From a virus (Duplodnaviria > Heunggongvirae > Uroviricota > Caudoviricetes): a DNA stretch of 29,513 nucleotides. The stretch lies in IMG/VR virus record IMGVR_UViG_2563366805_000003; one strand, given 5' to 3'. Positions 8,431 to 29,248 of the stretch are shown here, piece by piece; position 1 is the first letter of the stretch, and every line of letters starts with the position of its first letter. Both the position numbers and the translations under genes were made by a program. The notes under the pieces were generated by a model that did no database searches, was not told the DNA's origin, and worked only from the letters and a program-made list of their open reading frames with translations.

Positions 8431-8442
8431 CGGAGACTGAAA

Positions 8443-10959: not shown

Positions 10960-11177
10960 CCAACATCCAGCTCATTGAAGCGCAATGTCGCATCGAACAG
11001 GTTCAGACTGTTTTAGGGTTCTGGCTTGAAGGGGCCAGCCCAAGCAACAGAGACAAGTTAATGATTGGCGCGGTTATGTCACTGCTCAATGGCGTACCAG
11101 AAGCTATTCAGGAAGCAGACGAATTGTTGGGCAAATATGAGTTACAGAATCATTCAGGCGAGGCGAAACATGAATAA
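10956..11177 (+). CDS. hypothetical protein
   Basis: 73 aa; ATGA overlap with flanking genes. Confidence 0.5.
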   Translation: MTNIQLIEAQCRIEQVQTVLGFWLEGASPSNRDKLMIGAVMSLLNGVPEAIQEADELLGKYELQNHSGEAKHE

Positions 11178-11772
11178 TTTCTTAACTTTCCATGCAGAAG
11201 CAACGCCTGACGGCGTAAACATCATGCACCGCAGCAACGATGGCATGACAGAACGCGTTGAGACCGTCTCATATATTGATGCCGTAAATCGTCTGGATGC
11301 CGGGGATTATGACGATAAACCAGATGAAGGTATGTCAATACATCTCGCTATAGCCGATGGCGGCAACCAGGGATATTTCGATTACACATCACAGCATAAC
11401 GTCATTATGTGGAGATGGCTGATCGCAACAGTATTCATGCTGGAAATGAGAGAGGAAAACGGCACTGTCAGCATCATTGATGATACTGGCAATCCTTCCG
11501 AAGTGGCTGTTTATTCCAACGGCATCGTTGCCATGCCGCTGTATCCAGTAGCAGAGCGCCTCGCTATGGCAAACAACATTGAGGGAGCGATGATAGAACG
11601 TTTTGGCATCGAGTCTGGCACAGAACGCTCCATCATTTTCTACAGAGCCATGATGGATGTGGAACAAGGAGCACTGACTCCATTTGGTCGTGAAACGCTT
11701 GCTGAACTTCACAACAGCTTTATAGCTGAACTGAATGAAAACGGCATGCCATCGGAACCAGTGACGCACTGA
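11170..11772 (+). CDS. hypothetical protein
   Basis: Internal ATG (MNNFLTFHAEATPDG...) preceded by GAGG; 200 aa. Confidence 0.5.
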   Translation: MNNFLTFHAEATPDGVNIMHRSNDGMTERVETVSYIDAVNRLDAGDYDDKPDEGMSIHLAIADGGNQGYFDYTSQHNVIMWRWLIATVFMLEMREENGTVSIIDDTGNPSEVAVYSNGIVAMPLYPVAERLAMANNIEGAMIERFGIESGTERSIIFYRAMMDVEQGALTPFGRETLAELHNSFIAELNENGMPSEPVTH

Positions 11773-11782
11773 GGATGGAACC

Positions 11783-12124
11783 ATGATTACTAAAAATTTC
11801 CGACTGAATGCGCTGGCAAATAAGTATGCGTCGGCACTGTATAACCACATTACCTCCACCAGCGGAGGGGACTATTTCATGGTTGATGCGGACGGCGAGG
11901 CCGTACGTGTGGAAATCGTCAATGGAGTAAAAGGCGTTCGCAGCCTGATCGATAGCTACACACTGGCAGCCATGAAAGTGTTCTACCCGCAGTGGGAAAC
12001 CGTGGGGATCGAGCTTATTGAGCGTTGCGTCACTAAGGACGGATTGACTGACGTCGGGCGTGAGATATGGCAAAGCATGGTTAATGACATGGGCGCAACT
12101 GTAGCGGGAGGTTCTCATGCGTGA
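11783..12124 (+). CDS. hypothetical protein
   Basis: 113-aa ORF preceded by GAGGATGG. Confidence 0.5.
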   Translation: MITKNFRLNALANKYASALYNHITSTSGGDYFMVDADGEAVRVEIVNGVKGVRSLIDSYTLAAMKVFYPQWETVGIELIERCVTKDGLTDVGREIWQSMVNDMGATVAGGSHA

Positions 12125-12488
12125 AAATGCAGAAATGGCGCTTAGCTCCGCAATCGGAGAGCAGGTGGCAAAGATTGCTGGTGCTGTGTGGATTCATAAC
12201 CTTCATTCTACTGGTGAAGAGAAAATGGCAATTCAGACGCCAGAGGGACGCACCATTACTACATCTCTGAAGCCGTCAGATGTTTGTGATCTGATTTGCG
12301 CATTCATGTACCCAGCAATGAGGACTGTCCACGGCGATAAGTGGAAACTTGCGACAACCGCTGAATTTGATATGTGGCTAAACAATGATGGCATGCTGAC
12401 TGATTACGGAATAACCAAGTGGCAGATGCTGGTTAGCCATATCGCAAACGCTATAGACCACGTGGGGTACGGTGATGCGAAACATTGA
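12117..12488 (+). CDS. hypothetical protein
   Basis: 123-aa ORF overlapping the previous and next genes. Confidence 0.5.
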   Translation: MRENAEMALSSAIGEQVAKIAGAVWIHNLHSTGEEKMAIQTPEGRTITTSLKPSDVCDLICAFMYPAMRTVHGDKWKLATTAEFDMWLNNDGMLTDYGITKWQMLVSHIANAIDHVGYGDAKH

Positions 12489-15231
12489 TCTTATCCGTCA
12501 GGTTATCAGTGCGTCTGAAAACAACTGGCCTCATGTGCTGGGCTGCCTGAACATAAATGTCCCTGACTCTCCGCGCCGTCATGCTCCCTGCCCTGCATGT
12601 GGGGGCAAAGATCGATTCCGGTTCGATGACAACGGGCGCGGTAGCTTCATCTGTAATCAGTGCGGCGCTGGTGATGGGCTGGATTTAATTAAACGCGTAA
12701 ATAACTGCGACACAACAGAGGCGGCGCTTCTTGCCGCTGATGTTCTGGGTATTGATTACCGGACAACGGAAACACCAGAAGCCACCAGCCAGAAACGGGA
12801 ACAACTGGAAACCGAGCGCCAGCGACGCGAACAGGAGCGCCTGAAAAGGGCAGAGAAGGACGAACAACAAAGACGGGATACGTTTTCCCGTCAGTTTGAT
12901 GACATGCGCAGAAAGGCTGTAAACGGCAAATCTGATTATCTGGTTGCGAAAGGGGTAGGTGATTTTACATTCCCCGTGTTGCCCGATGGATCTCTGTTGC
13001 TGGCGCTGGTGGATAAATCCGGCGCAGTAACAGCAGCACAGACTATTACCTCACATGGTGAAAAAAGACTCCTGACAGGTTCAGCAAAGCGAGGGGCATA
13101 TCACGCCATAAACGCACCAGAAACAACACAGAGCATCTTAATCGCAGAAGGGCTGGCAACGGCATTATCTGCCCATTTAATGCGTCCAGAGGCGCTGACA
13201 GTGGCGGCGATTGATGCCGGGAACCTGTTATATGTCGCCCAGGTACTGCGGGATAAATTTCCTTCAGCACAAATCATCATTGCTGCGGATAACGACCACA
13301 GCGAAGGAAGACAAAACACGGGGAGAATAGCAGCAGAAAAAGCAGCTTTATCTGTTTCTGGATGGGTGGCATTACCCCCGACAGATCACAAAGCAGACTG
13401 GAATGATTACCACCAAAAACACGGCATTAAATGCGCCACAGAAGCGTTCAATAAGTCAATGTACCAACCACAGGGTAATGGCGTGAAACAGGAGCCACAG
13501 ACCATTGAGGGAAGCGATTTTAAGGTTATGGATACCGATCCACTGAAACCAAGAATAGAAAGCCGCGAGGATGGTATTTATTGGGTATCTCCGAGAGCTG
13601 ACAGCCAGAGTGGAGAAATCATCAATAACGAAAGCTGGTTATGTTCTCCGTTAAGCGTTATCGGTACTGGCAGAGACGATAAAGACCAGTATCTCATTCT
13701 TCGCTGGCTGTCGTTTGGTTCTGAAACGCCGACAACCGCTGCCATTCCACTGGCTGATATTGGTGAACGTGAAGGATGGCGCACACTTAAAGCTGGTGGG
13801 GTAAATGTCACGACCAAAAGCAGCCTCAGAGCAATACTGGCAGACTGGCTACAACGCAGTGGCTCTCGTGAATTGTGGCGTGTTGCTCATGCCACTGGCT
13901 GGCAATGCGGAGCGTACATCATGCCTGATGGGGAAATCATCGGAACACCTGAAAATCCTGTGCTGTTCAGCGGGAGAAGCTCAGCCGCAGCCGGATATAC
14001 CGTCTCAGGGAGCGCGAAAAGCTGGCGTGATAACGTGGCGCGTCTGGCCTTTGGTAACTATTCAATGATGACCGGGATCGGCGCAGCACTGGCAGCGCCA
14101 TTGATTGGGCTGGTGGGCGCTGACGGGTTCGGCATTCATTTCTATGAGCAGTCGAGCGCAGGTAAGACCACCACGGCAAACGTGGCGAGCAGCTTATACG
14201 GCAACCCTGATTTACTGCGGCTGACGTGGTACGGAACCGCGCTGGGGCTGGCAAATGAGGCCGCCGCCCACAATGACGGACTAATGCCGCTTGATGAAGT
14301 TGGTCAGGGCGCTGATCCTGTCAGCGTTTCACAGTCTGCCTATGCGTTATTTAACGGTGTAGGGAAACTGCAAGGCGCTAAAGATGGTGGAAACCGGGAT
14401 CTAAAACGCTGGCGTACAGTGGCAATCAGCACCGGAGAAATGGATTTAGAAACATTTATCGCTACTTCCGGGCGAAAAACCAAAGCCGGGCAACTGGTGC
14501 GACTGCTGAATATTCCGTTGAGTAAAGCAGTACGCTTTCACGATTACCAGAACGGAAAACAGCACGCAGACGCACTGAAAGACGCTTACCAGCATCACCA
14601 CGGCGCGTCCGGGCGTGAGTGGATTAAATGGCTGGCAGACCACCAGCAACAGGCTATTAAAACCGTTCGTGATTGCGAAAGCAGATGGAGAAGCCTGATC
14701 CCATCCGATTATGGTGAGCAGGTTCACCGTGTAGCCGCGCGATTTGCCATTCTGGAGGCCGCATTGTTGTTAGGCGAGGTTGTAACAGGCTGGGATGCTC
14801 AGACATGCCGTGATGCGATACAGCACAGCTATAACGCATGGTTGCGCGAGTTCGGCACAGGTAACAAAGAGCATCAGCAGATTATTGAACAAACGGAGGC
14901 ATTTCTTAATGCCTATGGGCTTAGCCGTTTTGCACCATTTCCATACAGCCCGGCAGATTTGCCCATCAAAGATTTAGCCGGATACCGTCAGCGTGGAGAA
15001 CATGACGAAAGCCCAATGATTTTCTACACATTCCCGGCCACATTTGAAAAGGAGATCGCATGTGGTTTCAACGCAAAACAGTTTGCTGAAGTGTTGAAAA
15101 AAGCCGGGATGCTAACCCCACCAAACAGCGGTCGTGGATACCAAAGAAAATCACCACGTATTCAGGGACGACAAATAAACGTTTATGTACTCAATTACCA
15201 GCCAGGAGATTATAACTCATCTGAAGAATGA
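12472..15231 (+). CDS. primase-helicase (phage P4 alpha-like): zinc-binding primase N-terminus plus P-loop NTPase/helicase C-terminus
   Basis: 919 aa. Zinc finger CPACGGKDRFRFDD...FICNQCGAGDGLDLI is typical of P4 alpha / PICI Pri-Rep primases. Walker A-like GIHFYEQSSAGKTT further on. Iterons follow the stop immediately. Confidence 0.85.
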   Translation: MMRNIDLIRQVISASENNWPHVLGCLNINVPDSPRRHAPCPACGGKDRFRFDDNGRGSFICNQCGAGDGLDLIKRVNNCDTTEAALLAADVLGIDYRTTETPEATSQKREQLETERQRREQERLKRAEKDEQQRRDTFSRQFDDMRRKAVNGKSDYLVAKGVGDFTFPVLPDGSLLLALVDKSGAVTAAQTITSHGEKRLLTGSAKRGAYHAINAPETTQSILIAEGLATALSAHLMRPEALTVAAIDAGNLLYVAQVLRDKFPSAQIIIAADNDHSEGRQNTGRIAAEKAALSVSGWVALPPTDHKADWNDYHQKHGIKCATEAFNKSMYQPQGNGVKQEPQTIEGSDFKVMDTDPLKPRIESREDGIYWVSPRADSQSGEIINNESWLCSPLSVIGTGRDDKDQYLILRWLSFGSETPTTAAIPLADIGEREGWRTLKAGGVNVTTKSSLRAILADWLQRSGSRELWRVAHATGWQCGAYIMPDGEIIGTPENPVLFSGRSSAAAGYTVSGSAKSWRDNVARLAFGNYSMMTGIGAALAAPLIGLVGADGFGIHFYEQSSAGKTTTANVASSLYGNPDLLRLTWYGTALGLANEAAAHNDGLMPLDEVGQGADPVSVSQSAYALFNGVGKLQGAKDGGNRDLKRWRTVAISTGEMDLETFIATSGRKTKAGQLVRLLNIPLSKAVRFHDYQNGKQHADALKDAYQHHHGASGREWIKWLADHQQQAIKTVRDCESRWRSLIPSDYGEQVHRVAARFAILEAALLLGEVVTGWDAQTCRDAIQHSYNAWLREFGTGNKEHQQIIEQTEAFLNAYGLSRFAPFPYSPADLPIKDLAGYRQRGEHDESPMIFYTFPATFEKEIACGFNAKQFAEVLKKAGMLTPPNSGRGYQRKSPRIQGRQINVYVLNYQPGDYNSSEE

Positions 15232-15256
15232 GCTTCTTCATGTGCGTAGAAAAGGT

Positions 15257-15367
15257 GTTGGTTCAGTTGGTTCAGTTGGTTCAATTTGTAAAGAGTATTG
15301 TTTTATAAGGATTTTATTCTTTTTATTGAACCAACACTGAACCAACAACACGGTATTTTGAACCAAC
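15257..15367. repeat. iteron cluster (putative replication origin): 3 tandem GTTGGTTCA (10-bp period), AT-rich spacer, 3 inverted TGAACCAAC
   Basis: GTTGGTTCA at 15257, 15267 and 15277. TGAACCAAC at 15327, 15338 and 15359. Spacer is ATTTGTAAAGAGTATTGTTTTATAAGGATTTTATTCTTTTTAT. Starts 26 bp after the primase stop. Confidence 0.7.
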
Positions 15368-15815
15368 ACAATGTGACTGAATTGATGCGCACAACACCTG
15401 GCTGGCATCAGAGAGTGTTTTACGAGACTTTCGTAAAATCCTGTGTACAAGGGCGTGACGTTTTTGAAAGTGAGCACTACGAAATTTTCGTAGTTCAAAA
15501 AACAGCCTCTGAGAAGTTGTTATGCCTGTTCAGCAAACCATCCGCATAGCTGATCGCGAATCAAATTACCAATGGAGCCAGAAGCAAGGGCAGAACTGAA
15601 AAGCGCCTGCCGTGAAGAGTAATGCGACACCATAAATATAGTTTTTAGAGTCCATAAAAAACCTGTCAAAACCTGACACACAGAACGATGCCACCAGCTA
15701 CTGAGCGGTGGCATTTTTTTGTGCTATTTGTTTCATATTTTGCAATTATGATGATGAATATTGCGATTTGTGAAACTATAATAACTGTTGTTTTATACAG
15801 TTCTAAGGGGGCGTT

Positions 15816-15977
15816 ATGGCTATTTCAGTAAAGCCGGTATTGATAAGTGAGAAGCAAATGGAAGCGATAAAGAAAATTCAGGAAGAGCAGCGTAAAAAAT
15901 CAGGAATTGGAGTAGCGCCAACTCTGCATGAAATTGCACGAGGGTTAATAGATAAGGCGCTGGCAGGCTGTATGTGA
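15816..15977 (+). CDS. hypothetical small protein (53 aa), not in the supplied ORF track
   Basis: ATG at 15816 preceded by AAGGGGGCG. Translation MAISVKPVLISEKQMEAIKKIQEEQRKKSGIGVAPTLHEIARGLIDKALAGCM. Stop at 15975-15977, 16 nt before the next gene. Confidence 0.4.
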   Translation: MAISVKPVLISEKQMEAIKKIQEEQRKKSGIGVAPTLHEIARGLIDKALAGCM

Positions 15978-15993
15978 AAATGGATGGCATCGC

Positions 15994-16455
15994 ATGGAAC
16001 TAAAATTTATTGATAACCCTGTGCGATTACAGGCCTTTCTTAACGAGCCAGGCAATACCGAAAATATTGTTGAGCCGGGGCACACGTACTACATCAAGCC
16101 TGATGCGGTATATCTCGGCATCTACGAAGGATTAGTGCTGGCTGGCGTTCATGAAGTGCGTAACTTCTGGCATAGCGTTGTTGAATGCCATGCGGTGTAC
16201 GACCCCGGATTCCGTGGTGAATATGCACTGCAAGGACATCGATTATTCTGCAAATGGCTTCTCGAAAACTCACCATTCCTTAACAGCATCACTATGGTTC
16301 CTGACACCACGAAATACGGACGGGCAATTATCCGTTTGCTTGGCGCTACCCGTGTTGGTCACCTTGATGATGCTTATATCAGATGTGGTAAACCCGTCGG
16401 CGTAACGCTTTATCAGTTAACTCGGCAACAATATAAGGAATTCAGCGAATGTTAA
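15994..16455 (+). CDS. hypothetical phage-like protein; first gene of the putative ejection-protein cassette
   Basis: 153-aa ORF overlapping the start of the next gene. Confidence 0.5.
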   Translation: MELKFIDNPVRLQAFLNEPGNTENIVEPGHTYYIKPDAVYLGIYEGLVLAGVHEVRNFWHSVVECHAVYDPGFRGEYALQGHRLFCKWLLENSPFLNSITMVPDTTKYGRAIIRLLGATRVGHLDDAYIRCGKPVGVTLYQLTRQQYKEFSEC

Positions 16456-17126
16456 TTACCCATATAGCTCATAAACATCTCAATCGTGCCGTATACGAAA
16501 AAGGCGGTGATGGTGGTGCCTCTAAAGCTCAGGCGAAGGCCCAGCAGCAGGCAATTGATTTGCAGCGCGAGCAGTGGAATACTGTGATGAATAATCTCAA
16601 GCCGTATGCAGAAGTCGGATTGCCTGCTTTACAACAACTGCAAGGACTGATGACTCTGGAAGGGCAGAATAAAGCCGCGAATGATTTCTTTGGTTCTGGT
16701 TTATATAAAACACAGGCAGATCAGGCCCGTTATCAGAACCTTGTCTCAGCAGAAGCTACCGGGGGGCTTGGCTCAACAGCTACCAGTAACCAGTTATCTT
16801 CCATTGCGCCCATGCTTTATAACAATTGGCTTAGTGGGCAAATGCAAAATTATGGAAACCTGCTAAATGTCGGGATGAATGCGGCATCAGGGCAGGCAAC
16901 AGCAGGGCAAAACTACGCCAATAATACCGGGCAACTCTTGCAGGGGCTTGGCGCTATTCGTGCAGGTCAGGCGCAGCAGCCATCCAGTCTTGCGCGTGGT
17001 ATTGGTGGGGCGGCATCAGGCGCTTTAGCGGGTGCGCAACTTGGTTCCGTTGTTCCGGGTATAGGTAATGTCGCCGGGGCTATTGGTGGTGGGCTTATTG
17101 GTCTTGTTGGGGGGCTTGGATTCTAA
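16449..17126 (+). CDS. putative DNA-ejection / internal virion protein, small (gp7-like by size and position), Gly-rich hydrophobic C-terminus
   Basis: 225 aa. C-terminus GAASGALAGAQLGSVVPGIGNVAGAIGGGLIGLVGGLGF is a glycine-zipper-like segment. Stop overlaps the next ATG. Confidence 0.45.
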   Translation: MLITHIAHKHLNRAVYEKGGDGGASKAQAKAQQQAIDLQREQWNTVMNNLKPYAEVGLPALQQLQGLMTLEGQNKAANDFFGSGLYKTQADQARYQNLVSAEATGGLGSTATSNQLSSIAPMLYNNWLSGQMQNYGNLLNVGMNAASGQATAGQNYANNTGQLLQGLGAIRAGQAQQPSSLARGIGGAASGALAGAQLGSVVPGIGNVAGAIGGGLIGLVGGLGF

Positions 17127-18445
17127 TGGCGACATGGCAACTTGGCGGGCTGCCTAGCATGGCACCGCAAAATGATAATGCTCCTCGTTCTTCCGTTCCT
17201 CAGCCTGTGCAGTATCAGCAGCAGCCAAACGTAGGTTTAATGGCGCTACAGGGGCTAAGAGGCGTTGCTGAGATTAATCAGCAGGCGCAAATTTCCCAGC
17301 AGCTAAAAGAATATCAGGCACGGTTGGGTAGTGCGGTAGCTAATAATGATCGTGTTGGCGTGCAGAAGTTAATGGCCCAGTATCCCCAGTTTATGGCTGA
17401 TTCTCAAAAACAGATGGGATTCATTGATGCTGAGCAAAATCGGCAGACCGCTGACGCTGCCATGAATCTGCGTCTTGCGTCACAAACTGGAGATCCACTG
17501 ACCATGCAGAAGGCCATTCAGCAGGCAAATCCAGTATTACAGCGATTTGGTCTTCCTGCTGAAGAGGTTTATCAGTCTTGGCAGAATGACCCACAGGAAT
17601 TCAACAGAATCACTGACCTCATCCACCTCCATGCTGATCCAAATAGTTACTTTAGTGTTCAAGAGAAGCAGCAAGGGCAGAGTATTGCACAGCAGAACGC
17701 AGATACATCTGCATATAATGCTCAGGTTAATGCGGAGCAGGGTAATCGGCGTCTCGATATGGAGCAGTTCAAAGTCATATCCGATAACCAACTACGCACG
17801 AGAGAAATGGTTCTGAAAGCACGACTTGGACGTGCTCAAAATGACATCGAGAGAGACAAGCTCAATGCTGAACTGAGCAAGGTACAGCAGGCGAAAGTGG
17901 AGAAGATGAACGATAAAATTAATACTGTTGCAGGTAATATCGACTCCTTGAACTCTGCGCTTGAAGTGGGTCATGAACTGGCGGGAATTGTAGGGAAACA
18001 TCCTTCGGCCGTTACCCGTTCGCAGAACTATAACCCCCTGACGCTGGGGTTTGGATTCCTCCCTGATGTAGCAGAAGACACACGAAGCCTACGCGCCAAA
18101 GCTGATGAATACAACCTAAAGGTTATTCTGCCTAGCCTAAAAGGTACTTTTGGCTCTAACCCAACCGAAGGGGAAAGGGCTGCCCTTATGCAATCTCAAA
18201 ATGGCATTAAGTCAGCAACCAGCAATGAGGCATTTTTGCGAGAGTTGAATAAAGCGCAGGACGTAATTATTCGAATGCAGAAACGACAGATTGCCGGGCT
18301 CGGTATTCCTGTAACCAAATCTAAGGACGAAGAAACTGATACCAAAATGCTGTTGCAGGATCCTTCACTGGTTAAGGATTATGTGACCGCACATGGCTAT
18401 CTGCCGGAAAGTTACTATCAGGCAAAACTTAAGGGATGGCAATGA
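17126..18445 (+). CDS. putative DNA-ejection / internal virion protein, middle (gp20-like by size), Gln-rich
   Basis: 439 aa, Q-rich with coiled-coil-like stretches. Translationally coupled on both sides. Confidence 0.45.
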   Translation: MATWQLGGLPSMAPQNDNAPRSSVPQPVQYQQQPNVGLMALQGLRGVAEINQQAQISQQLKEYQARLGSAVANNDRVGVQKLMAQYPQFMADSQKQMGFIDAEQNRQTADAAMNLRLASQTGDPLTMQKAIQQANPVLQRFGLPAEEVYQSWQNDPQEFNRITDLIHLHADPNSYFSVQEKQQGQSIAQQNADTSAYNAQVNAEQGNRRLDMEQFKVISDNQLRTREMVLKARLGRAQNDIERDKLNAELSKVQQAKVEKMNDKINTVAGNIDSLNSALEVGHELAGIVGKHPSAVTRSQNYNPLTLGFGFLPDVAEDTRSLRAKADEYNLKVILPSLKGTFGSNPTEGERAALMQSQNGIKSATSNEAFLRELNKAQDVIIRMQKRQIAGLGIPVTKSKDEETDTKMLLQDPSLVKDYVTAHGYLPESYYQAKLKGWQ

Positions 18446-21162
18446 TGGCACAACTGACAGAAAAACAGAAAGCCTATTCCCGTCATCTCGATGAAAAATA
18501 TGGTTTCCCATCAGGGACGATGGAAACATTAGTTGGCAATGAATCTAGTGGTAACGGAAGTGCCGAGTCACCGAAAGGAGCTAGAGGATTTGCTCAACTG
18601 ATGCCCTCAGTAATGAGTGATGCTGGTTATCGTGGAACAGATCCGCGCTCACTGCCATTTGAAAAGCAAATGGATATCGCAGCAAACCATCTCAATAAAG
18701 GAATGAAGCGATTTGGTGATATAGGTATGGCATTGGCTGGGTATAATTCTGGCTATGCTCGTATTAATGCCGTAAGAAACGGTAAATCTACACTGCCAGA
18801 TGAAACGGCTAATTACGTAAGTAAATTTGCAGATGCCGGAATAATCCCTGATGACAGTGAAATCTTGCAGTTTGCACAAACCAGTCAACATCGCAATCTT
18901 CAGCAGCCTGACTACTCAGAGCTTGATAAAGAAATCTCTCAGGTGGGAGATATTTCTGCATGGGAAGCAAAACGTCAGCAATTTAAGAACATAGAAGCAG
19001 GACTACCAACAGCCAGTTCATGGGAGCAGAAAAGAGCTCAGTTTCTCGCCGATGAAAATGCCGGGGAACCGCAGCAGCAAGTAGCCAAGTCTAACCTTAA
19101 TCCTGAGATGGAATATCTTTCGCCAGGACTGAAAGCTGCGCCAGAGCAGATGGCCAGAGGGATTGCTAATATACCGTTTGATGTAATGGACGCAGGCGTG
19201 GGGGTAGTCAATGCGGCGCAATCAGCCGGAGCATGGGCAGCTCAGAAGCTTGGTGTGGGTGATGGCACATACACGCCCATATCACCTGTCTTTCGCCCAG
19301 TAGACCAACCTACAGATCCATACGCGCAGGCTGGTGAGCAGCTAGCACCTTACCTTATTACAGGATTAGGTGCAGGAAAGGCAGCTACCGCAGCTTCTTC
19401 AGTTGCCAACGCTCCACGTGCTGAACGTGCGGCCACAAAGGTGGCTAGTATGTTGGCAGAAAACCTGCCAGGTACATTGGTGAACGCCCAAAAGAACGGG
19501 CAGATCAGCCCAGAAGACCTAGCAAAAGAGACAGGTATTGGCCTAGCAGGATCGCTAGGAGCACGCGCTTTAATAAAGAGCGGACAGACAGCCAGTGACG
19601 TAATGCGAGATGTATTGCGGAGTAATACAAATCAATCAGGCCATGTGTTAGGGGCAGCAAATACTCTGGAAACCGCCAATGATGTATCGAAAGCAGCGCG
19701 TTCTGCCGTAGGCCGAGAGCATATCGCATCGCAGGCATCAAACGTCAGAGATGATGTCGCTAAGGCGGCGAAAATCACTGGTATTAATATCAACACCCTG
19801 ACGCCTGGAATGCGCTCAGGTAGTCGTGGAATTGCCCAAGCAGAAGGTGTTCTGGCATCAACTCCTGGGAATGTTCAGGATGCTCACCTTACGGCCTTCA
19901 ATGAAATATCCTCAAAGTTGAATAAGCAGTTGTCTGATTTCGGTGCTGAGTCTGGAAGCGCATCAGAAAAAAGCGCAGCAATTAAAGAGCGCATCATCGC
20001 GAGCCTCAGTGATATGAAAACAGCAGAGAATATGGCATGGGCAGAACTGCGAAGCACGATGCCACGCGAAAGGATGAAAATGAGTAATGGGATGGCTGTC
20101 GTCCAAGCAGAAAAAGCAGCCAATGTTCCACTCAGCCCGGAGATGAAACAGTTTCAGGCTGCCAACAACCAAGGTGGCGGCATAACCTTCGACGGGATGA
20201 AGGCATGGCGTGCTAAGTTTGCTGATGCTGAACAAGCAAACACCCGGGCAGGTAAGGCCAATGCCGCCCGGATTGCCGGAGAAATGCGCAGAGCTATCAC
20301 TGATGACATGCGCATCATGGCTGAAAAAGGAAACTTCCTCACAGAATGGCAGAAAGCTAACGATCTCTCTAAAAGTTACATTATCGCCAAACAAAATGCC
20401 GAATCTGTTTTTGGTCGAGATCTCGCATCAGACGCTATGGTAAGAAAAGGTGCCGATACGCTTAAGGCATCCGCAAACACTGGAACTGGAGCTTTTCACC
20501 GTCTTATCTCCGCGCTGCCGGAAGCAGAACGCCAACCAGCAATAGCATCTATTCTTCAGCATGCTGTGGCGCAGGGAGAGAAGGGAGGAATCGGTGAAGA
20601 GTCTGGTATCCAGTATTTTGCCAAGCTCATGACCCAGCAGAATGTAAACGCCATCAGTCGTCATGCGCCAGATCTCGGTAGAATGATGAAAGAGTTCGGT
20701 GTACTCGCTAAAGCCAGCACCAGACCGCAGCGATACGTAGAGCGCACGGGAAGAACAACTGAGGCTCTCAAAACGCTCGATTCAGGCCTTCCAAAGATCG
20801 TCGGCGTGATTATGAACGGAGTTCAACAGTCAGGTGCGATCGCTGGAGGCTTTGGCGGTGGTGTAATTGGTTCGATTAGTGGTTTGGTTGCTGGTGGCGC
20901 GCTGAGAAATACTGTGGCTAAGATTGGGGCGACAAGAAGTGGTAGGTATGCGATAGAGAAAGCCGTTCAGGAAGCTACAAAAGCAGTGCGCGCAGGGGCA
21001 TCACCAGCAGCGATCGCCGCAGCAGAGAAACGATTTTCGGCCAATAAAATTGCCATGAAAGCAATTCGTGATGCCGTTGGGGCTGAAGAATTCGTGAAAC
21101 TGACAAGGGCCGGGATTGTAGCTACCCTCAGTGGCATGAAAGATGTTAGCGAATGGGAATAG
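18436..21162 (+). CDS. large virion-associated protein with N-terminal lytic transglycosylase (SLT) domain
   Basis: 908 aa. SLT signature GNESSGNGSAESPKGARGFAQLMPSV ... LAGYNSGYARINAV (ES / GLMQ-like / YN-G motifs). Long alpha-rich C-terminus with a Gly-rich segment GAIAGGFGGGVIGSISGLVAGGAL. Confidence 0.7.
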   Translation: MAMMAQLTEKQKAYSRHLDEKYGFPSGTMETLVGNESSGNGSAESPKGARGFAQLMPSVMSDAGYRGTDPRSLPFEKQMDIAANHLNKGMKRFGDIGMALAGYNSGYARINAVRNGKSTLPDETANYVSKFADAGIIPDDSEILQFAQTSQHRNLQQPDYSELDKEISQVGDISAWEAKRQQFKNIEAGLPTASSWEQKRAQFLADENAGEPQQQVAKSNLNPEMEYLSPGLKAAPEQMARGIANIPFDVMDAGVGVVNAAQSAGAWAAQKLGVGDGTYTPISPVFRPVDQPTDPYAQAGEQLAPYLITGLGAGKAATAASSVANAPRAERAATKVASMLAENLPGTLVNAQKNGQISPEDLAKETGIGLAGSLGARALIKSGQTASDVMRDVLRSNTNQSGHVLGAANTLETANDVSKAARSAVGREHIASQASNVRDDVAKAAKITGININTLTPGMRSGSRGIAQAEGVLASTPGNVQDAHLTAFNEISSKLNKQLSDFGAESGSASEKSAAIKERIIASLSDMKTAENMAWAELRSTMPRERMKMSNGMAVVQAEKAANVPLSPEMKQFQAANNQGGGITFDGMKAWRAKFADAEQANTRAGKANAARIAGEMRRAITDDMRIMAEKGNFLTEWQKANDLSKSYIIAKQNAESVFGRDLASDAMVRKGADTLKASANTGTGAFHRLISALPEAERQPAIASILQHAVAQGEKGGIGEESGIQYFAKLMTQQNVNAISRHAPDLGRMMKEFGVLAKASTRPQRYVERTGRTTEALKTLDSGLPKIVGVIMNGVQQSGAIAGGFGGGVIGSISGLVAGGALRNTVAKIGATRSGRYAIEKAVQEATKAVRAGASPAAIAAAEKRFSANKIAMKAIRDAVGAEEFVKLTRAGIVATLSGMKDVSEWE

Positions 21163-21312
21163 ACGCTCTAACTAACAAAACCATAATAGCCAAGGACGGC
21201 ATACTGATATTGAGCCAACTATCAAAATTCCATATCACATTACGGGCCTGTGGCTTACATTCGCTTACAGTGATGATAATTTATAACCACGCAATTCTTA
21301 GGTGAGATTATC

Positions 21313-22011
21313 ATGATTAAAAATCTTCTTTTAATATTATCCCTGTCATTATTGGCTGGATGCGTACAAAAACCGTTAGTAACGGTCAATGCTTTATCTT
21401 CCGGGCAATCTGTCGGTAAGAAGTTCTTGATCATCCCCGCAAGCCAAGAACTTTGGAACACCAAACAGATTGAATACACTCAAATAGCTACGGTAGTAGC
21501 CGCCAGTTTATCAAGCCAAGGATATACACAAGTTAAAGATGAAAAATTGGCTGACCAGGTAATTCTCTTGAACTTTTTGAGAAGCGGGGCCATTTCAAAT
21601 ACTCGTAATGTAACCATCCCAATATACGGGCAAACTGGTGTGAGCTCAGCAACAACGTACGGAAACTCGAACACCACGTTCAATAGTTATGGTGGTGGCT
21701 ACGGTACAGCTAATACCACTGGAACGGCAACAACAGTTTATACGCCTACTTATGGAATTACTGGCGCGTATAACACAACTGTGACGGACACGTTCTACGG
21801 CGCAGGGGTGATACTCCAGTCGTTTGATGCCAAGGCTTATCTCAATAATAGGCAGATTAATATGTTATGGAAAGTTGGTAGCTCAGTCGTCTCGCAACAG
21901 TCTGATGGAATTGCTGATTACAAGGGGTTGGCGAGAATAGCCGCTAGCTATGCCGGGAAAAATACAGAAGGTGATATAACTTTTAATGTTGACCCTAAAG
22001 CACCAAATTAA
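21313..22011 (+). CDS. lipoprotein (signal peptide plus lipobox LLAGC), Thr/Gly/Tyr/Asn-rich; possible surface exclusion lipoprotein
   Basis: MIKNLLLILSLSLLAGCVQ fits a signal peptidase II lipobox. Low-complexity T/G/Y/N-rich middle. AT-rich gene with its own terminator. Confidence 0.65.
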   Translation: MIKNLLLILSLSLLAGCVQKPLVTVNALSSGQSVGKKFLIIPASQELWNTKQIEYTQIATVVAASLSSQGYTQVKDEKLADQVILLNFLRSGAISNTRNVTIPIYGQTGVSSATTYGNSNTTFNSYGGGYGTANTTGTATTVYTPTYGITGAYNTTVTDTFYGAGVILQSFDAKAYLNNRQINMLWKVGSSVVSQQSDGIADYKGLARIAASYAGKNTEGDITFNVDPKAPN

Positions 22012-22018
22012 CTAATAA

Positions 22019-22040
22019 GCCCGGTACGCCGGGCATTTAT
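22019..22040 (+). terminator. rho-independent terminator of the lipoprotein gene
   Basis: GCCCGG-TACG-CCGGGC hairpin followed by ATTTAT, 8 nt after the stop codon. Confidence 0.6.
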
Positions 22041-22871
22041 GCCCCTATTATTCATGAATCGCTTTTTCTAGAAGGTATGCGACAAACGTTAAGTGACATT
22101 GCCTACACATTCGGGGCGGGATTTCAAATCCGCTCCCAGTTGATGGGGGGCGTTACAGTACGCGCATATCCGCTTTATGTGAAACAGGAAGATTTTTCTG
22201 ATATCACTGCCACAGCAAAACACCAATTTCGTGACCAGTACGCGCGCGAGGGGTATCAGTTGCAAAAAATTTTGCAACTACGTCCGACCAGTACGCACAC
22301 GATGGCGGGGGATACCATGAAACTGTTCTCTACACGAGACAGAGTGGTGGTGATGTGTTGATTATCGGCGTATATGCGCACAGGACGCGCTATGACAATG
22401 TTTTATGCGGGTACACCAATCACATGTATCTGGTGTGATAAATCGCGTTACATGACCTCTCATGTTGTGCTGGTGGTTATCACGACGTTCTGAATCTGGC
22501 TTTTGTCTGATATTTTGCGACAAGTACGCGCGCGTAACATCGAAATTATCGGATGGCGTATGTTGCTGGCAAGATAAAGTCGGCGTAATACAAAGGCGTT
22601 ACTTGATAGCAGCAAGATTACAACAATGGTTGTTGAATTTGAGCGATGTAAGGAATTGATTTAGGGAGGCGCTGATGGCTAAAAAGTTCCACTACCAGCG
22701 GATGAATGCGCCAGCGATGGCCGTTTGGTAGTAAAAGAGGAGCCATTCCTCAATCAGTTGAATACATTATGCCAACTAAATGGGTGGGGGCACTGTGTGG
22801 GTATTCAGCGGTGACGGTATTTTTTAAGCCAAGGACTATCCGTAGCAGGGGGACTCATTTTGAAATATTTA

Positions 22872-23309
22872 TCATATGTAACTTATTATTTTAGATAAAG
22901 ATTTCCAGTTAAAGAAAAAAGTTATCATTGATATAATCAAATATGCCCCTGCGAGTAGCAGGGCATAATAATCCAGAGGCAGATTGCTGACAACAGGGGC
23001 AAACATCGAGATCATTGCTAATAGGCAGGCTGTGATCAGCGTAGTTCCTGTATCAAAAAGCCCCTCAATAATGCCTTTTAGTACTCCGTTACTTTTTAGA
23101 GCGCCTACAATTCCCTTTGAACTATCAAAGCTACTTAGCATGGTGACTGATGCCAAAACAAAACCAAAGAGAACTCCAGAAATAGTTGAAAGAGCACCAG
23201 CAGCCGAAATGACAGCATTGTGATCTAGGTCGTGTAAAAAATGGGCACCAGCAATAGCCATAGCTAGAGCAAACAATGACTTGGCAGCAAACAATTTCCG
23301 AGAACTCAT
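22872..23309 (-). CDS. small integral membrane protein, about four predicted TM helices; second gene of a two-gene operon
   Basis: 145 aa with four hydrophobic stretches: FALAMAIAGAHFL, ISAAGALSTISGVLFGFVLASVTML, TTLITACLLAMISMFAPVV, YYALLLAGAYLIISMITFFF. RBS AGGAAT; 12-nt gap after the upstream gene. Confidence 0.65.
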   Translation of the reverse strand: MSSRKLFAAKSLFALAMAIAGAHFLHDLDHNAVISAAGALSTISGVLFGFVLASVTMLSSFDSSKGIVGALKSNGVLKGIIEGLFDTGTTLITACLLAMISMFAPVVSNLPLDYYALLLAGAYLIISMITFFFNWKSLSKIISYI

Positions 23310-23321
23310 AATGTATTCCTG

Positions 23322-24407
23322 TTACGTTTGACTAACCAAATAGTACTGGGTTAGATACCTAAGGTTGTCATTCTTTGCTTGTAGCATAGCATTTTTAACG
23401 TCAGTATCGGTCGGATACCCATCTGCTTGGATAGGCACCATCTTCTTTACCGTAAGAACTTCGTCTACAAGACTTTTCTTCTTTTTATCGCCCTGAGCAA
23501 CAACATTTGCTTTCTCAAAAGTTAAACGACCATCACCACCAGGGAACTTTTCTAGCATCTCCTTAAGGCTTTTTTTAACGTCATCCTCAAGCCATCCCTT
23601 TGCTTTTCTTTTTAATGGAGAATGTCCGCGTAACGAAATAGTCAGGTGGCTTGAACTGGTGCCTCTGATCATCTCAATCATCTGATTCGCGAACATTCCA
23701 TCGAGTTGATACTGTGCGGCATTGAAGTTTCTTGGGATGGCCACAGAAATCTCGCAGCTTCTTAGATTGGATCCAGTTTCGAGTAGTTCTTTGATGCTTT
23801 CTTCTTTCCAAATGGCTTCAAAAGAAACAGGGACTCCGCGATCACTGGAGTTGAAAAGAAGGAAGGCTAAGTCACTATGGCGTGGACCTAAATGATTTAA
23901 AGACAATACTAGAATGTCTGTCTGAGGATAATAAATAAAGTATGTACGTTCTGAAAGAGTCTTTGCCCCGGCTAGAGGGATTTTCTCTTCCACCCACTCT
24001 TTATCTGTAATATATGCCAGTGTTGCGCTTTTTCTTCTTCGAGACATGAATCCGAAGTAGGAGCCATCCTCGGGTGAGATGTCTAGAAAATGAATTTTAA
24101 GTTCTCTTTCACCAAAGTCTGCATAGTGGGTCATCTTGAAGTCTTTAGAACACCGATCATACAGATTTTTAAAGGCCTCTGCGGTTAACCCCTTGTTACT
24201 AGTGCGAATATTCTCAGAGCTTGTGTAAAAGCCCACCCTTACAGATTTCAAACTTTGATCTTTTGGTGCCACAGTCATTTGAGCTCCATTGTACTCTGCG
24301 ATAGTTTTTGCACACCTTGAAATCAAAATCTCCATGTCAGTCACGAGAAAATAACTATGGATGAAACCCATCAAAGGCATTGAATACAGGTGGCTTTTGA
24401 GAATCAT
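23322..24407 (-). CDS. hypothetical cytoplasmic protein, no recognisable motif; first gene of the two-gene operon
   Basis: 361-aa ORF on the minus strand, no signal peptide or TM segment. AT-rich relative to the flanks. A long upstream non-coding region includes the second iteron cluster. Confidence 0.6.
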   Translation of the reverse strand: MILKSHLYSMPLMGFIHSYFLVTDMEILISRCAKTIAEYNGAQMTVAPKDQSLKSVRVGFYTSSENIRTSNKGLTAEAFKNLYDRCSKDFKMTHYADFGERELKIHFLDISPEDGSYFGFMSRRRKSATLAYITDKEWVEEKIPLAGAKTLSERTYFIYYPQTDILVLSLNHLGPRHSDLAFLLFNSSDRGVPVSFEAIWKEESIKELLETGSNLRSCEISVAIPRNFNAAQYQLDGMFANQMIEMIRGTSSSHLTISLRGHSPLKRKAKGWLEDDVKKSLKEMLEKFPGGDGRLTFEKANVVAQGDKKKKSLVDEVLTVKKMVPIQADGYPTDTDVKNAMLQAKNDNLRYLTQYYLVSQT

Positions 24408-24748
24408 CCTAACCTGGTGACGGTGGTTCGCATATCCTGATGGATGATCAGTGATTAATCAATGCGCCAAGCAGATGTGTCTATGTGTTTGTTAATCATT
24501 GCATGACAGTAGATCGACATGGGAGATCACGTTATATAGTTGAATTGTTAGGATATCCATGCACCGATCAACTGACTAGGCTGATGTGCTTTTTAGCAGG
24601 TGCCATATAGTAGTTAGGCGGTTCTGTGAAATGATTACTGTTCCAGCATAACTGCGGCATAAAGCGGTGCTATATAAGCTATTTGCTGGCGGATTTAGTC
24701 TTCACCGTTAATATATGTAGTGACTATTTGACAGAGTGTTAGTTCACG

Positions 24749-24848
24749 GACACTTTTTGTTGGTTCAAAATGAGTTGATGTTGGTTCAATATTTTAGAAA
24801 AAACACAATAAAAACAACGCTCTTTACAAATTGAACCAACTGAACCAA
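24749..24848. repeat. second iteron cluster, inverted relative to 15257-15367: 2 GTTGGTTCA, AT-rich spacer, 3 tandem TGAACCAAC
   Basis: GTTGGTTCA at 24749 and 24770. TGAACCAAC at 24822, 24831 and 24840. The reverse complement of 24808-24862 is near-identical to 15246-15300. Confidence 0.7.
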
Positions 24849-24894
24849 CTGAACCAACACCTTTTTGCTTATCTATATAATCTGAGAGGCAGAA

Positions 24895-25176
24895 ATGATA
24901 AGGGACAGGAAAGCTGAAGAGCTGGAGTCAAAAGGGCTATACCGGAGAGCTGCCGCACGATGGATGGAAGTCATGCTGTTATGCACCGAGGACGATGATC
25001 GGGAATGGATAAAGCGCCGCCGTGAAACGTGTCTGGAGAACGTGAAGCGCCCGCCCGTGAAGGTTGAGGAATTTGGCGACCTGCATAAAGCTGTTACCGA
25101 AACGCAACACCGCATGGGGATAGCGCAACCGAACGGTAACGCCTTCCGGTTAAATGGCGGCAAGAGGCAAAGGTAG
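24895..25176 (+). CDS. PerC-family transcriptional activator-like protein
   Basis: 93 aa. MIRDRKAEELESKGLYRRAAARWMEVM matches the recalled PerC/Pch N-terminal signature (AEELE..G.YRRAA.RW). Confidence 0.55.
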   Translation: MIRDRKAEELESKGLYRRAAARWMEVMLLCTEDDDREWIKRRRETCLENVKRPPVKVEEFGDLHKAVTETQHRMGIAQPNGNAFRLNGGKRQR

Positions 25177-25473
25177 ACCACCAGAGGGAAATCATCCTCT
25201 GGCTGGCGGTTTCTGGTATTTCGGGACAAGTACGCGCACGCGTAGCACCCAATCGGTGAGGAAATAGCGGCGACCTGAATGGTCAAAATCACAACGCAGC
25301 TATCCCCGTAAGCATCGCTTAACGGAATAGCAGTAACCTGAATCCAGTGGGGAGGGGGTAGTCAAATCTCTACAGGCCTGACTATCCGGGACTGCCCGCC
25401 CCATCGTTTTTTTATACCCGCGAAAAATGAAATTTAATCCGGGCGTGTTTCATCCTTCCAGAGGGTATGACGT

Positions 25474-25659
25474 ATGACACCACGCGAAATAGCCTTATTG
25501 ACCATCGCCAAACTTGAGCACGGAGGCCACCAGCTTACACAGGCAGATCAACGGGAGATAGAACGATCAGTTAATGCCGATATAGCCCGGCGCGACAGGT
25601 TCCGCGAAATGATGCGAGCACCTGCCTACCAGTGGAAGAAGCCAGCGCCGCGCAGGTAG
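25474..25659 (+). CDS. hypothetical small basic protein
   Basis: 61-aa ORF with plausible RBS GAGGGT. Confidence 0.35.
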   Translation: MTPREIALLTIAKLEHGGHQLTQADQREIERSVNADIARRDRFREMMRAPAYQWKKPAPRR

Positions 25660-25779
25660 ATATGGGATTATTCCACATGTAACTTATGCGTATTAAGCAA
25701 ATTTCCTTTATTCACCTTTACAGAATTGTGAGTACGTCAGTATCGTTATCCTTCCGATTCGCATTTATTCAGGATTTGC

Positions 25780-26322
25780 ATGTACCAGCTAAAGATAACC
25801 ATCCGAGACAGCAAACCACCTATATGGCGGCGTGTGCTGGTTCCAGAGCAAATCCCCTTTAGTAAACTTCATGCCGTGATCCAGTTAGCTTTTGGCTGGA
25901 ATGACGAACACCTGTATATGTTCGAGAAAGGGCGTAAAGGTGATCCAGGTAGCGAGTATCGCGTATGGGGTGAGGATGAAAGCATGGGTAACGCGGCAAT
26001 CACGCCACTATGGGCGGCGCTCCAGAATGAGGGTGACAAGCTGGTTTACACGTATGACTTTGGCGACTGGTGGGATTGCGTCATTGTGCTGGAGAAGCAA
26101 ACACACGATACGAGTAATCAGCCCATTAGCTGCCTGCGTGGGAAAGGCACCACCCCGGCGGAAAACTCAGGCGGCTTGCATGGTTACAATGAATTGCTAT
26201 TACAGGCCAGAGAGTCTGATAATCCTGAGCAGGCCGAGATCCACAATTTCCTGATGCTGGATATTGAACGCCGGGTTTACGACCTGAGCCGCATCAACGA
26301 CAGATTGCAGGCTATTAACTGA
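25780..26322 (+). CDS. pRiA4b ORF-3-like family protein
   Basis: 180 aa. MYQLKITIRDSKPPIWRRVLVPEQIPFSKLHAVIQLAFGWNDEHLYMF...YTYDFGDWWDCVI fits the recalled PRiA4_ORF3 pattern (YxLK..PPIWRR, FGW, DFGDWW). Confidence 0.6.
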   Translation: MYQLKITIRDSKPPIWRRVLVPEQIPFSKLHAVIQLAFGWNDEHLYMFEKGRKGDPGSEYRVWGEDESMGNAAITPLWAALQNEGDKLVYTYDFGDWWDCVIVLEKQTHDTSNQPISCLRGKGTTPAENSGGLHGYNELLLQARESDNPEQAEIHNFLMLDIERRVYDLSRINDRLQAIN

Positions 26323-26674
26323 CCCGCATGTATTCACCTGATATTGCGTTATCAGCGCCGCCAGTATCGCGCATAACAGCACAATGACCGGGTAAACCGT
26401 AACGCACGACCGTTGCGTTAGTCTCACCGCCGCGCCGTATCTGGCGCGATTCATACACTGTCACCCGCTCAAGCAGTCCACCAGCAACCATGCTTTCCAG
26501 TGTGCGCCGGGTTGATTCGAGCTGGTGACGCTTATCGAACGACACCATGCCATGAAGCAGGTAGGCCACACCCGACACATCGAACGGCGGCGCACCAATC
26601 TCACCAGTCACCCATTCGAGGTTATCCGGTTCAAAGTAGCTAAGTATCTCTTTTTTGCGGCTGGTCATTCTCAT
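26315..26674 (-). CDS. hypothetical protein
   Basis: 119-aa ORF converging on the previous gene, 8-nt overlap. Confidence 0.4.
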   Translation of the reverse strand: MRMTSRKKEILSYFEPDNLEWVTGEIGAPPFDVSGVAYLLHGMVSFDKRHQLESTRRTLESMVAGGLLERVTVYESRQIRRGGETNATVVRYGLPGHCAVMRDTGGADNAISGEYMRVS

Positions 26675-27272
26675 GGCTGGCTGATTCCTTATTGTGGGAT
26701 AGCACTATCATACAATAAGTGGGTTAAAGGGAGAGCGTTACCGCCTGATATGCTGTATGAATAACAACCAAATTTCAGGGGCGGAAAAAGATATGGGGGT
26801 ACTTTTGGGGGTATCTATAAAAAATGAACAATAAAAAAGGCAACAAAAACAAAGCTTATCGCCTATGTGTATTGTTCCTATTATCGCACCATTAAAATCA
26901 AATTGTTACGTAAGATCTTATCATTCTCCCACCAAAAAATTATCTTAATGTAACAGCTGGTGTAAGTAAATTCTATCAACGAAGATCAATCTTATCTACT
27001 GACCAAAAAGGCCTGATAGGGCTTCGCTCACTATACATCCTTGGCTGCAGGTTTAGTTGTACACCACTCCTAAATTTAATGTGTTGGCAATGTGTTCAAT
27101 AAAGCTCGAACAAATTAGCTCATTATGATCGGTTAATACTTCAACTTCTGGTTGCATGATTGTTTGTCCGTAAAAAGATAACGCGCCTGCCGGGTAGTAG
27201 CAGGCGCATTACGCAATAGGTAAACAAGGGAGGAAGTTCAGAAATGTAAATCGGGAAGGTTGTACGCAATGT

Positions 27273-27952
<680 letters not shown>

Positions 27953-27970
27953 TACAGTTCTCCACTATTG

Positions 27971-28192
27971 TCAGTTCAGGGTGATGCTCATCAGGCAGGT
28001 ATAGGGCCCATTGCGGTCCTGGCGGCGTTCGGCGTATACCGCGAGGACTCCGGCGATATCCGGAACGTCCCTGCCGGTGTAATGACAGACGCTACCGTGC
28101 CACTGGTATTTGCCGGTGCAGTAGCGAAAGATTCGGGACTCAGGATGCTGGCGGTATATCGTCATTGCCCTGCGTTTACTGATAATTTTCAT
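27971..28192 (-). CDS. ykfH: DUF987-family protein (YkfH/YeeT-like)
   Basis: MKIISKRRAMTIYRQHPESRIFRYCTGKYQWHGSVCHYTGRDVPDIAGVLAVYAERRQDRNGPYTCLMSITLN. Confidence 0.8.
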   Translation of the reverse strand: MKIISKRRAMTIYRQHPESRIFRYCTGKYQWHGSVCHYTGRDVPDIAGVLAVYAERRQDRNGPYTCLMSITLN

Positions 28193-28200
28193 GTAATACC

Positions 28201-28677
28201 TCAAAGCAGACCGTGTTCTGCGAACGAATAGATTTGCCTGCCACCGACAATCAGGTGGTCAGGGACGCGGATATCCACCAGCTGAAGCACCTGAACCAGT
28301 CGCTGCGTGAGGGTTTTGTCGGCCTGGCTAGGTGTCGTCTCGCCGGAAGGATGGTTATGCGCGAGTATCACCGCCGCCGCGTTGAAGTGCAGAGCACGTT
28401 TGACCACCTCCCGGGGATGCACCTCGGTGCGGTTAATCGTGCCGGTGAAGAGCGTTTCATGGGCAATCAACTGATTCTGGTTGTCCAGATACAACACCCG
28501 GAACTCTTCCCGCTCAAGCGCGGCCATATGCAGTCGCAGCCATTCACGTACGGCGTGGGTAGAGGTGAAGGCTACGCCGGGCTCATGCAGGTGGCGGTCC
28601 AGAGCCCTGAGCGCCCGCTGAATGAGACGCCGGTCCTGTGGCGTCATCTCGCCGGGTAAAAAGGAAAGCTGTTTCAT
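28201..28677 (-). CDS. ykfG: RadC-like JAB/MPN domain protein (YkfG/YeeS/YfjY family)
   Basis: JAMM motif HNHPSGETTPSQAD inside a 158-aa RadC-like protein. Confidence 0.85.
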   Translation of the reverse strand: MKQLSFLPGEMTPQDRRLIQRALRALDRHLHEPGVAFTSTHAVREWLRLHMAALEREEFRVLYLDNQNQLIAHETLFTGTINRTEVHPREVVKRALHFNAAAVILAHNHPSGETTPSQADKTLTQRLVQVLQLVDIRVPDHLIVGGRQIYSFAEHGLL

Positions 28678-28692
28678 CTGTTGCTCCTTCGG

Positions 28693-29151: not shown

Positions 29152-29248
29152 GGGTATGTCTCCGTCAATAAAAACGCCAGCGGCGATGGCTGGCGTATGG
29201 GGATATAAAGTGTGTTCGGGGAGGTGAATGCGGGTAAATGCTTCGCGA

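Follow-up and report, generated by a model that had tools for sequence, protein, structure and literature searches.

Mirror-image iteron clusters on either side of the cargo in an EcCIMP1-like satellite of Escherichia coli are probably the two halves of a PICI/SaPI-type replication origin

Why should a phage satellite carry two inverted clusters of the same 9-bp repeat, one directly after its primase-helicase gene and the other 9.4 kb away at the far end of its cargo genes? The question is raised by IMG/VR record IMGVR_UViG_2563366805_000003, a stretch of 29,513 nt (hereafter, the window) whose sequence identifies the element that it contains as an EcCIMP1-like phage-inducible chromosomal island (PICI), a satellite of E. 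coli phages, at 5942-26893 on the + strand (blastn to EcCIMP1, and Pfam domains). We call the cluster after the primase-helicase gene X (15257-15367) and the distant one Y (24738-24858), and the protein itself Pri-Rep. A preliminary description of this DNA had taken the clusters to be a bipartite origin resembling that of P4, and had raised the prospect that the bracketed segment might invert. We conclude here that X and Y are probably two mirror-image units of an origin of the type known from PICIs and from Staphylococcus aureus pathogenicity islands (SaPIs), belonging to the adjacent Pri-Rep, a reading whose support is comparative.

The clusters themselves are real. An exact search of both strands of the 29.5 kb retrieves 11 copies of TGAACCAAC, all of them in the two clusters of ~115 bp and none outside, as compared to 0.28 on average in 100 dinucleotide-preserving shuffles, none of which has more than 2; a 12th site at 24738, GTTAGTTCA, has one mismatch and fits the pattern of cluster Y. 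The coordinates given for X in the preliminary description stand, those given for Y (24749-24848) fall ~10 nt short at each end, and X does lie just after the primase-helicase stop, its first tandem iteron being 25 nt past it (ORF end 15231; ORF, open reading frame). Within X, an outer set of three tandem 9-bp iterons (15257-15283, - strand; GTTGGTTCA as read, TGAACCAAC on the minus strand; exact search and shuffles) is followed by an AT-rich spacer of 43 nt and 84% A+T (15284-15326), which we presume to be the melting region and whose core 'tttataagg.ttttatt' is kept across iteron classes, and then by an inner set of TGAACCAAC copies at 15327, 15338, and 15359 (15327-15367, + strand), with 11- and 21-bp spacing that recurs in all classes. 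Y has the same parts in reverse: an inner set of GTTAGTTCA/GTTGGTTCA at 24738, 24759, and 24780 (24738-24788, - strand; site search), 21 bp apart and with the mismatched copy first; a spacer of 43 nt and 79% A+T (24789-24831) with the conserved TCTTTACAAAT at its end; and an outer set of three tandem TGAACCAAC (24832-24858, + strand; exact search and shuffles). The outer arms, 15250-15304 and 24811-24865, are 96% reverse-complementary over 55 nt, in agreement with the inverted arm of ~55 bp noted earlier, and the inner parts of X and Y are 79% complementary. X (three minus-strand, three plus-strand copies) and Y each present the opposed iteron sets flanking an AT-rich region that characterize PICI and SaPI origins.

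The repeat cluster is element-specific and not a genome-wide motif, because the 151-bp X region finds matches in only 574 of 5426 complete E. coli genomes, at a median of two places per genome. EcCIMP1 has its own X and Y, with six plus six exact TGAACCAAC copies, 8.4 kb apart; the paper describing it makes no mention of an origin or iterons (Pick et al., ISME J 2025, PMC11773190), and a literature search for the iteron sequence returned unrelated uses only.

Pri-Rep (12472-15231, + strand) is a 919-aa protein with a zinc ribbon, a Toprim primase domain, a DUF927 helicase domain (Pfam Zn_Ribbon_Prim, Toprim_3, and DUF927; phrog_1139, DNA primase, 2.4e-178), and a C-terminal region that probably recognizes iterons. 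Its residues 403-814 match SaPIbov1 Rep (PDB 8tch) with a phmmer E-value of 1.4e-11 over 412 residues, with a weaker match to the SCCmec helicase 5dgk, such that a helicase related to SaPI Rep is here fused to a primase. For SaPIs, it has been established that the C-terminal winged-helix domain of Rep binds the iterons and that specificity resides in this domain, that rep is closely followed by an origin of 6-12 iterons with an AT-rich centre, and that the helicases self-load (Qiao et al., NAR 2022, PMC9371898). The locus in the window resembles those of SaPI Rep and PriRep5 in its homologous helicase domain, in the fusion of primase and helicase as in SaPI5, and in its 6-12 iterons around an AT-rich centre just downstream, but its iterons are of 9 bp rather than 5-6 bp, and its primase is of the Toprim type with a zinc ribbon. 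According to the text of a study on Gram-negative PICIs, the origin of these elements is found 3' of rep and has an AT-rich region between two sets of iterons; the same study showed that the pri-ori of EcCICFT073 replicates (Fillol-Salom et al., ISME J 2018, PMC6092414). Our element is like such PICIs in having int and alpA and rightward transcription; unlike the EcCICFT073-type origin as that text describes it, the unit is here doubled as a mirror image, with 12 iterons, two AT-rich spacers, and cargo between them. Judged by its sequence features, X alone, and equally Y alone, conforms to the published definition of a PICI/SaPI origin.

The evidence that ties both clusters to Pri-Rep comes from relatives. 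A primase scan taking one genome per species yielded 77 loci, mostly from Enterobacterales and with 50-99% identity, and repeats other than TGAACCAAC were found by de novo 8-mer counts in the 500 bp past each primase stop. Clusters of TGAACCAAC start 21-29 nt past the primase stop in ~45 of these loci, and the remaining ones have different repeats in the same position (TGAGACAAC, TAACCCGT, TGAACCGAC, TACCCGAC, TAACCCAC, TGGGATAAG, and AAACCGACC), making eight iteron sequence classes (A-H) among the relatives. Grouping the primases by their last 30 residues reproduces the iteron classes exactly. Class A (TGAACCAAC) has GRG[YF]QRKSPR[IV] in all 32 full-length proteins, some of them only 60% identical overall; class B (TGAGACAAC) has GRGYQGRV-RE (the QGRV-RE patch) in five of five proteins; class D (TGAACCGAC) has TRK[ST]LRI or QRKTPRI; and the patches of classes C, E, F, G, and H are different again. 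Despite the different patch, two class B proteins (L009 and L012) have 91% identity to Pri-Rep of the window over residues 351-800. When the 32 class A and five class B proteins are aligned over 919 columns, full discrimination is found only at columns 892, 893, 894, 895, 897, and 911; the codons for R892-K893-S894-P895-R896-I897 (the QRKSPRI patch), at 15145-15162 on the + strand, would therefore hold the determinant of iteron specificity. The test was also run in the reciprocal direction, with 120 IMG/VR contigs chosen only by two tandem TGAACCAAC copies: 74 have a primase C-terminus directly upstream, and Q[RQK]K[SG]PR[IV] is present in 73 of those. This covariation is what is expected if iteron specificity is set by the C-terminal domain of the initiator, and it makes a strong comparative case for recognition of the X and Y iterons alike by the C-terminal region of Pri-Rep. 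Because iteron classes pair with C-terminal patches, X and Y would be the cognate initiator-binding sites of a PICI/SaPI-type origin. The earlier suggestion that the repeats are iterons of the adjacent primase-helicase is thereby upheld, by covariation over eight classes and by the SaPI Rep-homologous helicase.

The relatives also indicate what the whole origin looks like, since its geometry is independent of the repeat class and the same architecture follows 50+ primase homologues from many Enterobacterales genera. The gap between stop codon and array is 21-29 nt in nearly all of them, which places the origin immediately 3' of rep. There follow two to three tandem copies (9-bp spacing), an AT-rich spacer of ~45-52 nt, three to four opposed copies at 11/21-bp spacing, a linker of ~40 nt usually containing CTGGCTGG(CAG), two to three spaced copies, a second spacer, two to three tandem copies, and at the 3' end a 'tttt..ttatata' box, after which the next gene begins; both halves carry the same repeat in every class. 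On this comparison the ordinary state is an uninterrupted double origin, ~250-400 bp long and comprising 10-12 iterons, and X and Y of the window appear as its two halves. There are variations in number: Yersinia pekkanenii (L036) has three copies of the double origin (8154-8421, 12736-13003, and 13917-14214), and a metagenome-assembled Erwinia genome (L064) has seven tandem iterons in X (3988-4050), not three.

The linker motif deserves separate mention. In the window, CTGGCTGG at 15398-15405 (+ strand) is the last conserved origin sequence ahead of the cargo, its counterpart in compact relatives lying midway between the two units, and CTGGCTGG(CAG) marks that mid-point in most iteron classes (as in the linkers of L006, L009, L018, L024, L046, and L049). 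It is also found after the unrelated iterons of a DUF5906-type cassette (L004, 8880-8900, minus strand); the N-terminal primase domain of that cassette is ~85% identical to the primase domain of the window. As an 8-mer, CTGGCTGG is frequent in coding DNA of E. coli, with eight copies in the window, and only its position is notable. Because it does not covary with the C-terminal patch, CTGGCTGG(CAG) may be read by the primase domain or by a host factor, e.g. as a priming site.

If the two units ordinarily touch, the 9.4 kb between them in the window calls for explanation. In classes C-G, as in at least nine loci of class A, the two tandem arrays lie 229-299 bp apart, and the five class B loci are compact as well; for class B and for six class A loci, in which the middle tandem copy has two or more mismatches, the automatic tandem-array classifier missed the arrays, and compactness was taken from site maps. 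Eleven class A loci, including the window, are split, with distances of 1187, 2320, 4855, 5969, 6311, 6894, 7265, 8499, 8854, 9049, and 9575 bp, and the single class H locus has a small ORF in the same slot (617 bp). Among the IMG/VR contigs, 25 are compact and three split. The sequence just past X and just before Y differs among the split loci; several different cargos therefore occupy the slot. Compared by blastn with EcCIMP1 of E. coli MP1 (L082), the element is 98.2% identical over 5942-22579 and 98.6% identical over 24736-26893, and homology is lacking only over 22580-24735, a block whose right end coincides exactly with the inner edge of Y. As X and Y are contiguous in most relatives, as cargos differ, and as the difference from EcCIMP1 stops at the Y edge, these sequences indicate that the separation is a derived state, with cargo lodged between the units (15414-24735, + strand), and not a feature of the design.

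Recombinant elements point to X as the half that travels with the initiator. Some 200 E. coli records match X at only 60-80% identity, by way of a Y-like cluster, and we examined two of them. The first is a degraded element without a primase. The second, from E. coli MSB1_1A, is a complete element. Its primase has the N-terminal 350 residues in common with Pri-Rep, but the helicase is of the DUF5906 type and the C-terminus is another one; repeats peculiar to this cassette, ACCTGTACCACCTATACCA, follow the gene directly and occur only beside it. Homology between the window and the MSB1_1A element (L004) stops at primase residue ~337 (window 13482) and begins again at 15414, immediately past X and CTGGCTGG, and the primase domain and downstream genes are 88-96% identical between the two. 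From the breakpoints at residue ~337 and 15413/15414, it follows that helicase, C-terminal domain, and X were exchanged together; by this evidence they move as one cassette, and Y can stay behind. The sequences speak for X as the important unit in cognate replication.

These results bear on the comparison with P4. In the P4 record X51522, crr (4291-4590) lies <50 bp from the 3' end of the alpha gene (4636-6969), and the ori repeats (9310-9413) lie 4.7 kb away and are of the same type 1 as those of crr; the window likewise has one iteron cluster directly 3' of a primase-helicase gene and a second one kilobases off, with shared repeats. An obligate bipartite origin of the P4 type, in which X (crr-like) and Y (ori-like) would both be needed in cis and Pri-Rep would loop out the 9.4 kb so that one site initiates, would account for this layout, and for cognate clusters that are nearly intact in the 11 split loci from different genera. 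We nevertheless consider it unlikely. Distance cannot be part of the design when the units touch in most relatives; the cassette of helicase, C-terminal domain, and X has been swapped without Y, and the DUF5906 cassette that replaces it has repeats only beside its gene; and each unit alone fits the published PICI/SaPI origin definition. Nor is the initiator alpha-like: its helicase is DUF927, not of the P4/D5 type, and the C-terminal domains have no detectable similarity. Further, crr is made up of a 120-bp direct repeat in two copies; X is a single unit, and X and Y are mirror images. What survives of the earlier P4 analogy is the layout, and of the bipartite origin, two cognate clusters of the same class; the initiator family, the kind of repetition, and separation as the basic design do not carry over.

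Several observations count against our own reading of X and Y as two units of one origin. The MSB1_1A element keeps a Y with six exact TGAACCAAC copies before perC (L003, 9008-9128) although its initiator is non-cognate; Serratia oryzae (L059) has a full class G double origin and, 6 kb downstream at the distal cargo end, an orphan class A Y (17871-17985); and ~11 class A loci have no Y within 10 kb. Y may be auxiliary, a relic, or in possession of a second role, and because some recombinant elements keep it without a cognate primase, it may not be essential. The predicted structure of the C-terminal domain of Pri-Rep is poor: the AlphaFold2 model has a mean pLDDT (predicted local distance difference test) of 50.6 on a shallow alignment, the homologue search having given short fragments only. 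Foldseek of this model against the PDB gave no significant match, the highest-probability one being a SaPIbov1 Rep chain (E-value 0.49, probability 0.72); a profile of the domain found no match in PDB sequences by hmmsearch and no similarity to P4 alpha by hhalign (probability 0.07%). We infer a winged-helix fold for this domain by analogy with SaPI Rep.

A second role for Y could lie in transcription. The perC-family regulator gene (24895-25176, + strand; Pfam PerC, 3.7e-30) is directly downstream of Y, and a TATAAT box at 24876-24881 (+ strand, by inspection of the sequence), 17 nt beyond the final iteron of Y, with 13 nt left to the perC ATG and without a -35 consensus, is a possible initiator-controlled promoter. 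Most relatives, whatever their class, keep the 'tttt..ttatata' box beyond the tandem array of Y, and the box is lacking on the outer side of X, which makes control of the downstream promoter by Y plausible; consensus scans around X and Y found no full sigma-70 promoter and no terminator above shuffles. One could go further and take X as the sole origin, with Y being mainly a control region by which Pri-Rep switches the perC promoter and downstream genes, or a decaying relic of the double origin. The box kept after Y in all classes and absent outside X would be explained, as would the orphan Y clusters upstream of perC in elements with non-cognate initiators. Yet Y retains full origin anatomy, with its AT-rich spacer and phased inner iterons, and in every compact locus it covaries with the initiator class, which a mere promoter would not need; moreover, the consensus promoter scan is empty at Y, and a perC-like gene follows X, rather than Y, in L015, L023, and L029. 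We regard this alternative as quite unlikely. Where perC lies with respect to X and Y varies: it follows Y in the window, and in L015, L023, L025, L029, and L030 a perC-like gene (48-55% identity) lies ~170 nt past the primase stop, directly after X and inside the X-Y bracket.

Inverted repeats around variable cargo might also be recombination sites, so that the 9.4-kb segment could invert or be excised as a cassette, or would resemble a transposon with terminal inverted repeats. The 55-nt arm with 96% complementarity and the variable cargo would suit this idea, and a serine invertase gene is present at 158-748. That gene is, however, outside the PICI, in a neighbouring prophage remnant, and compact loci have the same repeats but no cargo. 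No recombinase or transposase was found among the ten largest cargo ORFs searched. The inverted allele was sought with a chimeric query of the primase end, the outer arm, and the reverse complement of the Y inner flank, requiring at least 80% coverage; no place in any of the 527 E. coli genomes carrying parts of it reached that coverage, and we reject the inversion that had been envisaged for the bracketed segment. Recombination sites as such are very improbable.

Under the origin reading, the sequence of events would be as follows. After helper-induced excision, a circle of ~21 kb would be initiated at X; the C-terminal domain of Pri-Rep would bind the iterons (QRKSPRI for TGAACCAAC), protomers would assemble on both sides of the AT-rich spacer and melt it, the DUF927 helicase would self-load, and the Toprim domain would prime, by analogy with what is established for SaPI Rep. 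X is probably sufficient, because it travels with the cassette of helicase and C-terminal domain in recombinants. Y would remain a second cognate binding and loading site that probably still fires or assists, its tandem array overlapping the perC promoter region, and the space between the units would serve as a slot for accumulating and exchanging accessory genes. It is conceivable, if rather doubtful, that the doubled origin is a dedicated device in which each unit loads one helicase in one direction, the compact form being bidirectional from CTGGCTGG, the interval being a privileged cargo slot, and the split halves acting as two unidirectional origins or as a P4-like looped pair. Were this true, the homology arms around the slot would allow cassette exchange between satellites, and slot genes would sit between two initiator-bound sites, where their copy number or expression after induction could be controlled.

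The cargo now in the slot was annotated by Pfam (DUF2824, P22_gp7, Inj_translocase, and SLT) and PHROGs. On the + strand, a 53-aa ORF (15816-15977) is followed by homologues of P22 gp14 (15994-16455), gp7 (16449-17126), gp20 (17126-18445), and gp16/SLT (18436-21162), which are P22-like ejection proteins, and by two further ORFs (21313-22011 and 22077-22361). The minus strand has two ORFs (22872-23309 and 23322-24407) that match phrog_8552 and phrog_7651 and have no Pfam or PADLOC match; PADLOC found no match among the cargo ORFs of unknown function. These two ORFs make up the difference from EcCIMP1, which has alpA_1 in place of window 22580-24735, and this block looks like an accessory-gene slot. 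In L015, L022, L023, L029, and L062, GTAAGACAnTGTAAGACA is repeated ~30-60 nt upstream of Y, beside a divergent gene start just inside Y, and may be the operator of a cargo gene.

The remainder of the element is what would be expected of a PICI. Upstream of pri-rep, Pfam identifies genes for the tyrosine integrase, int (6153-7367), for alpA (7796-7999), for the AntA antirepressor, antA (8443-9276), and for ash (9445-10182), and beyond perC one for a PRiA4_ORF3 protein (25780-26322). PICIs are recognized by int, alpA, and pri-rep, a length of ~20 kb, and helper-dependent excision and transfer; the gene content is present here, and mobility is known from the 98%-identical EcCIMP1, a 19,963-bp PICI that excises and circularizes only with the P22-like helper Kapi1, which transduces it (PMC11773190). 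The two elements share the chromosomal neighbourhood (thrW/yagU side), the gene order, and the presence of both X and Y. In this strain, the left neighbour of the PICI is another element, not thrW, and a tRNA scan of the window found none. Within that left flank, a PD-T4-3 anti-phage defence protein (809-1522, - strand; PADLOC E-value 1.4e-127, GIY-YIG domain) is encoded between the serine invertase gene and an IS3-family transposase gene (1894-2760), and an ORF of 488 aa (4082-5548, + strand) with no Pfam or PADLOC match occupies an island of 32-37% G+C just left of the PICI integrase; in strain TUM17668, a retron reverse transcriptase of the Ec67 type closely precedes the PICI integrase. To the right of the PICI (27273-29364, - strand) are genes for the CbtA toxin, a RadC-like JAB protein, and antirestriction, the usual module of CP4-type islands.

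The PICI/SaPI origin is a known kind, and our finding extends PICI biology rather than adding a new kind of system; the mirror doubling, the split by a cargo slot, the eight-way code of iteron and patch, and the cassette formed by X with the helicase and C-terminal domain apparently have no earlier description. The analysis places the origin of EcCIMP1-type satellites, for which none was described, and these occur in about one in ten complete E. coli genomes (574 of 5426 with the origin sequence), with relatives across the Enterobacterales. It also marks the gap between X and Y as where accessory genes, including those for P22-like ejection proteins, are carried and exchanged. Finally, a recognition code in which a patch of five to six residues corresponds to a 9-bp iteron, with eight natural specificities, could predict the replication compatibility of co-resident satellites.

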